Shown: piece by piece, positions 35,609 to 38,072 of the stretch
Numbering within the stretch: the first letter of the stretch is position 1
How the letters are laid out: each line of letters opens with the position of its first letter
Assembly (NCBI RefSeq): GCF_002087085.1
Contig: NZ_MWQY01000002.1
Coordinates: 124,001 to 188,000, forward strand
Length of the DNA: 64,000 nt
Direction of reading: 5' to 3'
The notes under the pieces: model-generated
What the model was told of the DNA's origin: nothing
Seen by the model: the letters and a program-made list of their open reading frames with translations, nothing else
Database searches by the model: none
Made by a program: the position numbers and the translations under genes

Positions 35609-36819
35609 ACATCCTCCCCCCGGAACTCCCCGGCGATATTGCTCTCGGCAATTACAAGAAGTTCCTGATACGCCCGGATCAGTTCGTCGTCCGCTTCCTC
35701 TCCCCGGGACTCGCACCGGCGCTTGAACACCTCCAGGGGCGAAAGCTCGCTCAGGTGCGGATCCGCATCCTCCCAGGTTTCATCCCCACCGCCGTTTTTT
35801 GCATAGCGGACCCGGAGGATCTCAAGGGAAAGTGCGCCGGAGGCCTCCTCGATTCTCTCCTGGGCATCGGGTACCGGGTCGTTGACGCTGATATCGAGCC
35901 AGGGAGAAAGCTCTTCATTCCTGCCCGCAACATCCTCCAGCTGCCAGATGATTTCCGGAAGAGACCCGGAAAGAGAGACCAGGCGCCGGAAAACCGGGAC
36001 GGGAAACTCTTCAAGGGAGGCAAGCTGCTTTCCGTCAAACTCTGCCAGCACTAGACTCTTCCGTGTTTCGTCCCCGAAATCCAGGGCCAGGGGCGATCCG
36101 CTGTAACGGATATGCTCCTTTCCGTCCACCCTGCCCCGGCGATGCAGATGGCCCAGGGCGCAGTAATCCGCCGATGCCGGGAAGACGGAGGAATCGACCT
36201 GCCCCAGGGTGCCCACATAGAGATCGCGTTCCGAGGAGGACCTTCCCCCTCCGGCGGCCAGCAGGTGTCCGGTCAGAATAAACGGCAGCTCCTTATATCC
36301 TGAGGCTGCCCGGGACACTGCCTGATAGTGATCCCTCAGCCCCGCGACAAGTGCCGCATCCCGCTCCCCGATACTTTCACCCGCCCGGGGCTGCCTGAGA
36401 TCCCGCTCCCGCAGAAAGGGTACGCAGCCCACGCAGGCCAGGGGGCTATCCTCTCCATCCCGCAGAATAAAGAGCTCATCCTCCGGGGGCATAGCTCCCC
36501 CGACAACATGAACCCGGAAGCGGTTCAGGAGCTGGCGGGGAGCATTCAGGGTAGAAACGGAATCGTGATTCCCTCCCGTTACCACGGTACCGCGGCAGGA
36601 TGTGCGGGAAATCCGGTAGAGAAAATCATAGTAGAGTTCAAGTGCGGCGTTGGGGGGAGTGCCGGTATCAAAAACATCCCCGGCAAGGATCAGGAGATCC
36701 GGATTTTCAGACCGGACCAGATCGACAAGCCAGTCCAAAAAGAGACGCTGTTCCTCCAGGCGGCTCCGCTCAAGAAGACGATGCCCGAGATGCCAGTCCG
36801 AGGTATGCAGTAGCTTCAC
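35605..36819 (-). CDS. sbcD: SbcD/Mre11-like exonuclease subunit
   Basis: HTSDWHLG, AGDVFD, GNHDS, LGHLH, YSGSP; GTG start at 36819 after GGAGG. Confidence 0.93.
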   Translation of the reverse strand: MKLLHTSDWHLGHRLLERSRLEEQRLFLDWLVDLVRSENPDLLILAGDVFDTGTPPNAALELYYDFLYRISRTSCRGTVVTGGNHDSVSTLNAPRQLLNRFRVHVVGGAMPPEDELFILRDGEDSPLACVGCVPFLRERDLRQPRAGESIGERDAALVAGLRDHYQAVSRAASGYKELPFILTGHLLAAGGGRSSSERDLYVGTLGQVDSSVFPASADYCALGHLHRRGRVDGKEHIRYSGSPLALDFGDETRKSLVLAEFDGKQLASLEEFPVPVFRRLVSLSGSLPEIIWQLEDVAGRNEELSPWLDISVNDPVPDAQERIEEASGALSLEILRVRYAKNGGGDETWEDADPHLSELSPLEVFKRRCESRGEEADDELIRAYQELLVIAESNIAGEFRGEDV

Positions 36820-36873
36820 GTATCCTCCGGGTCCCATTGTAGAGGAGAGGCACATAAACAGACAAGAAGGCAG

Positions 36874-36915
36874 AAAAAAAATAACCCTCAGGGAAAGGAG
36901 GTAAAACCCTGAGGG
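36874..36915 (-). terminator. Intrinsic terminator with a 13-nt anti-SD loop
   Basis: Minus strand CCCTCAGGG-TTTTACCTCCTTT-CCCTGAGGG followed by TTATTTTTTTT. Confidence 0.8.
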
Positions 36916-36986
36916 GAAATAAAAGCGTGTGGGCCTGGTTACCGGGACTATTTCGGATCCCGTTAACACCCGGTAAAATATTTTAT
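36874..36986 (-). ncRNA. Candidate ~110-nt small RNA (two hairpins, anti-SD loop)
   Basis: Extended -10 TGtTATAGT (-10 at 36998-36993); 8-bp stem TTACCGGG/CCCGGTAA; terminator; separate sbcD promoter-like box downstream. Confidence 0.5.
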
Positions 36987-37067
36987 GCTCTAACTATAAC
37001 AATAAACAAAATAATGATCCAGAGGTTACAGATGAATTTTAATAGAATTTTGGCCCAAACACCCTTT

Positions 37068-38018
37068 TTAGAGTAATTTTGAGGAAGCTCCAAAAAGCGG
37101 TTCATCCAGGGGCAGAATACTGTGGTACTGCACGCGGGAAAACCTGTCGGCAGCATCCGGAAAGGTGTCATCCTGGGTCCGGATAAGGATATCATCCTCC
37201 CCCTGGCTGAATCGCATGATCGGCTGATTCAGGGCGCCCAGGACCTCCCCGGGGGAAAAACCCCGTTCCCGGGTCAGATACCGAAAGAAGGATGAACTCT
37301 CAGGATCTTCCGGACCGGCGTCCTCCCGGTATACGTAGCCCGACGCGTCCAGGATCTGTTCAAAGGGACTTTTTGAGTAGTGGAAAATCCGGGAAAGGGG
37401 CATATCCTTTCGAAGGAGCTGTGCATTCTGCAGTTCCCTGCCGATGGCGGAAATCAGGATGTGAATATGCCGATAATCCAGGGAGGTCCGGAATATCATG
37501 ACCGCAATGTCGGTACTGATGCTGTTTTTATGAAGAATCGCAGGAATATCGTAGTTGACGATATACAGATCCTCAAAACGCTTGATATTCTGACCGCAGA
37601 GGACAAAAAAGTCTGCCTGGGGGACCCATATTCGAAAAAGTTCTTCCGGAGAGAGGCCGAGGACATCCAGAGCCTCATAGGCGCCGATAATCTTCCCGGC
37701 CTCCTTTTCTCCGAAGCGGGAGATGAAGGAGTTCATCATCCAGGGGGTAAAGACTTTTGAGCCGTGCCGGGCAAAGAAGATCCGCACGTGATAATGACGT
37801 TCCACTATCCTACGGTCAACAAGAAAATCACCGGGAATATTGGCCAGGTAGGCCAGTTCTATGGCATCGCGATACCAGGGATTCTCGTAAACGACCCGCA
37901 TGATCCGGCTCTCCACCTGGATACCGTTGGTCTCGGGACGCAGGTACAGAAAAACATCCTGGCAGAGACTTCCCGTGCAGGCCGGCTTAAAGGGGATCAG
38001 GACTGTAGGCTTCTCCAT
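37068..38018 (-). CDS. Hypothetical protein, possible divergent NDK-like fold
   Basis: 316-aa ORF after pfk; FLYLRP near the N-terminus, FHYSKSPFEQ near the C-terminus. Confidence 0.7.
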   Translation of the reverse strand: MEKPTVLIPFKPACTGSLCQDVFLYLRPETNGIQVESRIMRVVYENPWYRDAIELAYLANIPGDFLVDRRIVERHYHVRIFFARHGSKVFTPWMMNSFISRFGEKEAGKIIGAYEALDVLGLSPEELFRIWVPQADFFVLCGQNIKRFEDLYIVNYDIPAILHKNSISTDIAVMIFRTSLDYRHIHILISAIGRELQNAQLLRKDMPLSRIFHYSKSPFEQILDASGYVYREDAGPEDPESSSFFRYLTRERGFSPGEVLGALNQPIMRFSQGEDDILIRTQDDTFPDAADRFSRVQYHSILPLDEPLFGASSKLL

Positions 38019-38072
38019 ACAGATATACTACTACCCCTGTTCAGGCGGGGCAATGTTAACCGTATTTACGGA

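Follow-up and report, generated by a model that had tools for sequence, protein, structure and literature searches.

The DNA analysed here is a stretch of 64,000 nucleotides (nt) of contig NZ_MWQY01000002.1 (assembly GCF_002087085.1, positions 124,001 to 188,000), referred to below as the window, and the subject of this work is a candidate small RNA (sRNA) gene on its minus strand. The gene order on this strand is pfk, orf316 (316 codons), the sRNA element, sbcD and sbcC, and the element is housed in the 250-nt gap between orf316 (37071-38018, with its stop at 37068) and sbcD. The latter gene was identified by Pfam (Metallophos and SbcD_C) and starts with a GTG at 36819, before which lies GGAGGA; the product of orf316 gave no family match in Pfam or NCBIfam scans. 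All features of the window described below are on the minus strand. A first-pass annotation, made from the sequence letters, had named several elements in this gap, and every one of them was found on that strand where the annotation had placed it.

The predicted sRNA is about 125 nt long and extends from about 36998 to 36874, with the start taken from the promoter register (see below) and the end from the U tract. Its 3' part is a terminator hairpin (36915-36885), recognised in the sequence, in the fold and by a covariance model described below. A perfect stem of 9 base pairs (bp), seven of them GC pairs, is formed by CCCTCAGGG (36915-36907) with CCCTGAGGG (36893-36885), and it closes a 13-nt loop, UUUUACCUCCUUU (36906-36894). 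The U-rich tail UUAUUUUUUUU (36884-36874) comes directly after this GC-rich stem, as in a Rho-independent terminator; the hairpin was not listed by a simple terminator scan because that scan was limited to loops of 3 to 8 nt. The 3' end of the 16S ribosomal RNA (rRNA) of the same genome reads GGATCACCTCCTTTCTA, and therefore ACCUCCUUUC (36902-36893), which consists of loop nucleotides plus the first stem base, is a copy of the cell's own anti-Shine-Dalgarno (anti-SD) tail. The match between the loop and the 16S rRNA tail, which had been pointed out in the first-pass annotation, thus amounts to an identity over 10 nt. The predicted RNA folds into two hairpins with a minimum free energy (MFE) of -36 kcal/mol (z -2.6 against shuffles), and UUUUACCUCCUUU is unpaired in both the MFE and the centroid folds.

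The remainder of the predicted RNA contains the motif AGAGCAU (36991-36985), which sequence comparison showed to be common to the type-A relatives described below, and a linker, UUAUUU (36922-36917), that precedes the terminator and is invariant in 7/7 sequences. Between them lies stem-loop 1 (GGGUGUUA-CGGGAU ... GUCCCG-UAAC..GCCC; 36971-36931), whose loop, CYGAAAUA (36956-36949), is nearly invariant in the consensus of the seven sequences. Four pairs of this stem show double compensatory changes in the consensus fold, and the MFE folds contain this helix too. A first hairpin had also been proposed in the first-pass annotation, with a closure by UUACCGGG/CCCGGUAA. These letters are present, and TTACCGGG (36976-36969) and CCCGGTAA (36946-36939) were found in the sequence; however, this closure is not kept in two congeners (L010 and L011), and it is the other register, that of stem-loop 1, which is supported by folding and covariation.

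Conservation and genomic context of the terminator hairpin

When the gap was compared with 41 relatives using BLAST, the element was recovered in full from 5/5 congeners and for the most part from the single further genome of the family; beyond the family, at least 12 genomes contain the terminator hairpin alone. An exact pattern of hairpin plus loop matched 116 stretches in a species-representative genome collection. Among the 80 matches with listed titles, 79 are spirochaetal (Spirochaetia, Spirochaetales, Sediminispirochaeta, Sphaerochaeta, Marispirochaeta or Spirochaeta), and the sole 'Clostridia' match resembles coding sequence and is without a U tract. A covariance model, R1, which comprises the hairpin, the loop CCUCCUUU and the U tract, was then built in this analysis. 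R1 matched 103 of the 151 sampled genomes of the class (62/87 genera; 80/120 high-quality genomes), with up to four copies per genome. In a sample of the phylum, 25 of 121 genomes were matched, 17 of them outside the class and mainly in one family (9/10), and there was no match in three other well-sampled families of the phylum (0/11, 0/11 and 0/7). The window copy scores 64.1 bits (E 3e-16) with R1, a score obtained by construction, as this sequence is in the seed.

As stem core and loop are both prescribed by the exact pattern, 40 lower-scoring and diverse R1 hits were chosen and aligned with five further loci, yielding 51 copies. Double-sided changes were seen at 10/10 modelled stem pairs, and compensatory cells numbered 121, compared with 25.7 in shuffles (0/500 shuffles reached the observed value). 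Paired cells made up 98.6%, and this value dropped to 70% or less when the partners were slid against each other. CCUCCUU is kept in about 40 of the 51 copies, the remainder keeping CUCCUU, and stems as unlike as GGCCCCUGGGG, CCAGGAAGG and GCACGCAGG all bear (A)CCUCCUUU, although the conservation of the loop is partly due to ascertainment, since both the search pattern and the model include it. Conservation of the loop and covariation of the stem, by which the first-pass annotation had proposed to check its reading, are therefore both seen in diverse copies.

One alternative is that the hairpin is a plain intrinsic terminator of the upstream transcript and that its loop is fortuitous. A gene immediately followed by a GC-rich stem and a U tract would agree with this, and one low-scoring hit with a deviating loop (L220) does look like an ordinary gene terminator. 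However, the loop motif is kept on unrelated stems throughout the 51 copies, which is hard to explain for a mere terminator, and promoters are conserved 80 to 180 nt upstream. In addition, the pfk genes of relatives without the element (L279 and L284) end in ordinary terminators with unrelated loops. The comparative data already contradict this alternative, to which we give a very low probability, and on such sequence evidence the hairpin is more than chance.

Members of the family have a common 3' module and differ in their 5' bodies and promoters. The hallmark of the module is a Rho-independent terminator with an 11-16-nt loop showing (A)CCUCCUUU. In the commonest type, type A, AGAGCAU is followed by CUUUUUUCAUCGACCUCCUUUUGAUG, a second anti-SD motif, and then by the terminator, while the Sphaerochaeta type has a second anti-SD motif together with a sigma-70-like promoter, and in further types there are tandem genes or RNAs with two or three anti-SD hairpins. 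Tandem copies, or two hairpins per RNA with an anti-SD loop in each, were observed at L017, L024, L227, L238 and L243, and up to three anti-SD motifs at L219, L223 and L237. In the window type, stem-loop 1 replaces the first anti-SD motif; this type, and the stem-loop 1 domain with it, is restricted to Marispirochaeta-like genomes. The genome that contains the window also carries a type-A paralogue (C20:39606-39660, plus strand; about 1447-1560 of locus L143; 31.8 bits), with TGTAAC-N15-GGGTTAG, the first motif CUUUUUCAUUGACCUCCUUU and the terminator loop UUUUACUCCUUUUA, and this paralogue is conserved in two congeners (G002 and G004, with model hits of equal score). A weak R1 hit in the same genome (C56:54285-54330, minus strand; L144; 23.5 bits) is an ordinary gene terminator with UUACCUCCUUUUUCC ahead of it rather than in its loop.

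The opposite strand might also be read as a gene for a small protein, as the reverse complement of the first motif of the relatives, AAAGGAGGTCGATGAAAAAAG, presents a Shine-Dalgarno (SD) sequence followed by ATG AAA AAA. However, the frames vary in both length and sequence: L014 and L021 have 10 to 11 codons, and L025 has more. The Sphaerochaeta type does not have the ATG at all, L013 has CTG in its place, and the window has no ATG, GTG or TTG within the usual 5 to 10 nt of the SD-like complement. The U tract, moreover, suits only the minus strand. This small ORF (open reading frame) was rejected because the frames are not conserved, and we find the idea scarcely credible.

Among the 30 best class-wide R1 hits, 17 are preceded on the same strand by a pfk homologue at a distance of 132 to 360 nt, and in 2 more this distance is about 1.2 kb, as in the window. 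The module is found at most 2.1 kb downstream of pfk in 19 of the 39 relatives that have a pfk ortholog. As judged from this comparison, the position downstream of pfk is ancestral, and one gene, orf316, has been inserted between the two here. Different lineages have different genes at this place: homologues of orf316 adjoin the sRNA in some relatives (L012 and L015), and at L268, L269, L278, L280 and L281 the product of the gene after pfk starts with a ...GD(L/I)H(G/A)... motif, which may be that of a metallophosphoesterase. In two of the genomes with the latter gene (G007 and G009), the sRNA module follows at a further distance of about 2 kb.

Linkage to pfk in these hits and relatives gives some weight to another reading, in which the hairpin is the 3' end of the pfk/orf316 mRNA and acts in cis as an element of the 3' untranslated region (3'-UTR), either by folding back on the mRNA's own SD or after processing from the mRNA, instead of being a regulator with its own transcription. 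Pairing between a 3'-UTR and a 5'-UTR is exemplified by icaR. Moreover, no other terminator lies between the orf316 stop and the hairpin, and pfk has an AGGAGG SD. Against this, a conserved promoter motif is located between the upstream gene and the RNA, and paralogues occur at other loci, including the second copy of the same genome on C20. Furthermore, orf316, which separates pfk from the element here, has its own promoter-like box and has no SD with which to pair. We regard a cis-acting element as unlikely, though worth keeping in view, and the two modes could coexist, as they do for 3'-UTR sRNAs with internal promoters.

On its other side the element is followed by sbcD only in the Marispirochaeta-like group, which argues against its being an sbcDC leader whose hairpin would, by terminating transcription, regulate read-through into sbcD. 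The element does point in the same direction as sbcD, the start of which is 55 nt further downstream, and one metatranscriptome contig (see below) bridges the terminator into sbcD. However, that contig may be DNA, and the consensus of the seven sequences contains no conserved alternative anti-terminator pairing. Furthermore, sbcD has a promoter of its own past the terminator, as the first-pass annotation had held: the sigma-70-like TTGTCT-18-TACAAT (36865-36836), which is separate from the sRNA, is present and is conserved in the genus. The sbcD attenuator was rejected on the basis of synteny and of this promoter, and we hold it to be highly improbable. The module, with a promoter of its own, occurs in many unrelated contexts, in agreement with the earlier proposal of an independent sRNA gene that is neither an sbcD attenuator nor a mere terminator of the upstream transcript.

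A promoter motif shared with an ECF sigma factor gene

The promoter motif of the family consists of TGTAAC, followed by GTT(T) 17 nt after the C. In the window, it is represented by a -35 element of the extracytoplasmic function (ECF) type, TGTAAC (37030-37025), and, 15 nt past it, by a -10 element, TTGTTTA (37009-37003), with the GTT core; both elements are conserved class-wide. ECF sigma factors typically use motifs of the form AAC ... GTT, 16 to 17 nt apart, which also precede their own genes. Of 121 non-redundant loci, 79 have GTAAC-N14-17-[TG]GTT at most 290 nt upstream, compared with 0/121 in the downstream control and 1/121 in the reverse-complement control. The first-pass annotation had instead assigned the promoter to an extended -10, TGTTATAGT (37001-36993). 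This sequence is present and its TATAGT is kept in the genus, but the TG is not kept even there, and outside the genus only a tATgaAaGAGCAU-like sequence is left at this place, so that TGTAAC-N15-TTGTTTA is the likelier promoter. The proposed extended -10 probably overlaps the transcript start, and TATAGT may have a sigma-70 role.

In the genome that contains the window, TGTAAC-N15-TTGTT has three sites, namely the sRNA, an ECF sigma gene and one intragenic site. The second of these lies 5 nt ahead of the ATG of a 175-residue protein encoded outside the window (contig C11:4896-5420, minus strand; locus L178:2944-3468), which was recognised as an ECF sigma factor by Pfam (Sigma70_r2 and r4_2) and by TIGR02937 (103.8 bits), with no equivalog. 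Located 3' of the sigma gene is a gene for a 180-residue protein that is a weak anti-sigma candidate (zf-HC2, 20.4 bits with a cut-off of 22.2; RsrA-like, 23.6 bits), followed by one for a 179-residue protein without a family match and then by one for a TIG and transglutaminase protein. One clear copy of the sigma ortholog is present in 38 of the 41 relatives, and the motif precedes this ortholog in 27 of 30 fetched loci, with near variants in the three misses. When 81 sRNA promoters and 27 sigma promoters were aligned on TGTAAC, the GTT core fell in the identical column in both sets. In the genome G008, where no sigma match reached E<=1e-20, a family member (L246) has a sigma-70-like promoter instead.

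In the 27 motif-bearing sigma regions, the start codon comes about 6 nt after the GTT core of the -10 element, too short a distance for the sigma mRNA to have a leader or an SD. The ECF sigma gene is thus apparently leaderless. Applying the 7-nt offset between GTT and the ATG of the sigma gene to the sRNA places the transcript start at about 36998. As the sigma gene and the sRNA have the motif and its register in common, the sRNA is read as a member of the small regulon of this sigma factor and is most likely transcribed by RNA polymerase with the conserved ECF sigma. At five loci downstream of pfk (L266, L270, L276, L283 and L286), the ECF-type motif has, about 100 to 150 nt upstream of it, a sigma-70-like promoter (CTTGAT-N17-TATATT-like) together with another hairpin, and these loci may produce a longer isoform or a second small transcript.

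Proposed mode of action

We propose, with slightly more confidence than doubt, that the element is a stand-alone, ECF-dependent gene for a trans-acting sRNA of about 125 nt, the terminator loop of which masks SD sites without Hfq. RNA polymerase with the ECF sigma factor would transcribe the sRNA as a discrete RNA from TGTAAC-N15-TTGTTTA. The exposed loop would then pair with the SD regions (AAAGGAGGU-like) of mRNAs, and this pairing would block binding of the 30S subunit, most likely under stress and again without Hfq. The working mode would thus be like that of LhrC, RsaE, 6C or CcsR, under a control in the style of MicA and RybB. Translational repression by SD pairing, as suggested in the first-pass annotation, is by analogy the most plausible function. 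Hfq (Pfam PF17209) was not found in the genome that contains the window, which is 97% complete, and one CsrA gene is present (C6:20341-20496). The lack of a detected Hfq fits with the chaperone-independent action of sRNAs with C-rich loops.

Parts of the stretch are contained in three metatranscriptome runs, as contigs that give no ends, strand or level; such libraries can include DNA, and the parts not covered are uninformative. One contig corresponds to the module of a relative only (36876-36922 in window positions). The complement of the loop of stem-loop 1 had 15 non-self hits, and those of the linker and of the 5' end had 12 and 2, respectively; two of these hits, located before short frames of 19 and 49 codons, were dropped as targets.

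Several results weigh against the proposed stand-alone, ECF-dependent sRNA, in addition to the ascertainment of the loop mentioned above. Concerning the transcript, a 207-nt metatranscriptome contig equivalent to 36756-36962 lacks the first 36 nt of the predicted RNA and continues past the terminator into sbcD. Concerning the promoter, the strict motif occurs three times in the genome that contains the window and 0 to 5 times in shuffled genomes, and therefore the count is uninformative and the weight of the motif rests on its position and phylogenetic footprint. In five other genomes, 1 to 4 hits were obtained, compared with 0 to 2 in controls, and the strict motif missed the sRNAs of both congeners searched (G001 and G005), whose -10 reads ATGTT. 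Moreover, 42 of the 121 family members are without the ECF motif, and those inspected carry sigma-70-like promoters, so that ECF control is not family-wide. Concerning targets, a 21-nt complement of the relatives' first motif (up to 3 mismatches, five genomes) matched only the sRNA gene itself, and the complement of the 13-nt loop (up to 2 mismatches) was found at the start codons of 16 unremarkable genes. No outlier was seen when the type-A paralogue of the same genome was run with RNAduplex against 5352 crudely defined start regions (mean -15.7, standard deviation 3.8, best -30.4 kcal/mol). A bare anti-SD sequence has little specificity of its own.

Since no specific mRNA target was found in these searches, one could also think of the loop as a decoy, which mimics the 16S rRNA tail and thereby titrates a protein such as a nuclease, a modification or maturation factor, or a ribosomal protein. 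The 10-nt identity to the 16S tail exceeds the UCCC-type seeds of known sRNAs, and the loop is conserved beyond the CCUCC core. However, the flanking loop bases vary among relatives, no candidate for the protein partner was identified or found linked to the locus, and the characterised RNAs with such loops all act via SD pairing (PMC4132741 and PMC8034643). We therefore consider a decoy to be quite unlikely.

SD masking may be extended to a more general and, in our opinion, rather improbable form, in which a very small ECF regulon has the sRNA as its effector arm, and the sRNA serves as a general SD mask that shifts translation toward leaderless mRNAs. Upon release of the sigma factor, abundant copies of the 16S-tail mimic would cover strong SD sites, and the leaderless mRNAs thereby favoured would include that of the sigma factor itself and of neighbours such as orf316. 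The notion that leaderless mRNAs would be spared had been raised in the first-pass annotation, and it gains one concrete example in the apparently leaderless ECF sigma gene. Upstream of orf316 (38018-38060), TTGCCC-17-TAGTAT ends 6 nt before the ATG and no SD is present; orf316 may thus be a second leaderless gene.

If the sRNA indeed acts in this way, it would provide a stress-triggered RNA reprogramming of translation initiation, based on a portable 3' module that has been joined to many sRNA bodies and promoters. To our knowledge, almost no riboregulators have been described for free-living spirochaetes. The present analysis provides for them a class-wide sRNA family with a covariance model, a predicted ECF sigma/anti-sigma regulator, a promoter motif and a testable mechanism. 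An anti-SD sRNA together with an apparently leaderless sigma gene also makes a stress switch between SD-led and leaderless translation testable in a harmless, culturable group.

Comparison with known systems

With respect to its control logic, the proposed sRNA may be compared with MicA, RybB and MicL of enterobacteria, which show that the regulon of an ECF factor, sigma-E, can include sRNAs that shut off translation of other mRNAs. There is no homology to these sRNAs, and they are Hfq-dependent and use 5' seeds for omp or lpp mRNAs, whereas here an anti-SD loop is present and Hfq was not found.

Nothing in Rfam reached the threshold, in agreement with the first-pass claim that the RNA was undescribed. 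In the gathering mode, neither the window as a whole nor any of 10 family loci had a hit with Rfam 15, and in the sensitive mode (36700-37200) there were six matches at E<=10, none of them at threshold. The best of these was LhrC (RF00616; 26.4 bits, E 0.074, with a gathering cut-off of 110), which was aligned via the terminator loop. No description of the family in spirochaetes was found in a literature search that did not extend to the Spirochaeta aurantia transcription start site and sRNA data behind PMC4987935, which may show a homologue. What is described here is an uncatalogued sRNA family of free-living Spirochaetia, and the kind of regulator to which this new family belongs is already known.

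LhrC of Listeria monocytogenes is about 110 nt long and binds the SD region of lapB with its terminator loop and two other CU-rich sites, and it is induced by cell-envelope stress via a dedicated regulator (PMC4132741). The likeness to LhrC1-5 is one of mode of action and not of membership, in that a CU-rich, SD-binding motif is exposed in the terminator loop. The low score given above shows no homology, and the LhrC motif is UCCC under control of the LisRK two-component system in another phylum, whereas the window copy has the full ACCUCCUUUC and a predicted ECF sigma.

The CcsR or 'Cuckoo' RNAs of Alphaproteobacteria (ar14) carry the anti-SD sequence CCUCCUCCC in hairpin loops and are transcribed from a stress-sigma promoter (RpoHI/HII), as described in PMC8034643. 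They resemble the present family in their anti-SD loops, in the stress-sigma promoter, in a site downstream of a protein gene and in having multiple sibling copies. However, they have two hairpins, each with CCUCCUCCC, whereas the window copy has ACCUCCUUU in one hairpin, in the terminator loop itself. The conserved neighbour is DUF1127 in their case and pfk here, and no CcsR match was listed by Rfam at E<=10.

RsaE uses UCCC motifs (as cited in PMC4132741), and 6C acts without RNA chaperones (PMC6486639). RsaE/RoxS of Firmicutes and 6C of Actinobacteria are absent from the six Rfam matches and differ in promoters and regulators; nevertheless, they are similar to the present family in being conserved at the level of a class or phylum and in directing C-rich loops against G-rich SD regions. 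The spirochaetal family would thus be one more separate lineage in which a C/U-rich loop imitates the anti-SD and works independently of Hfq, here as a complete copy of 10 nt located in the terminator loop.

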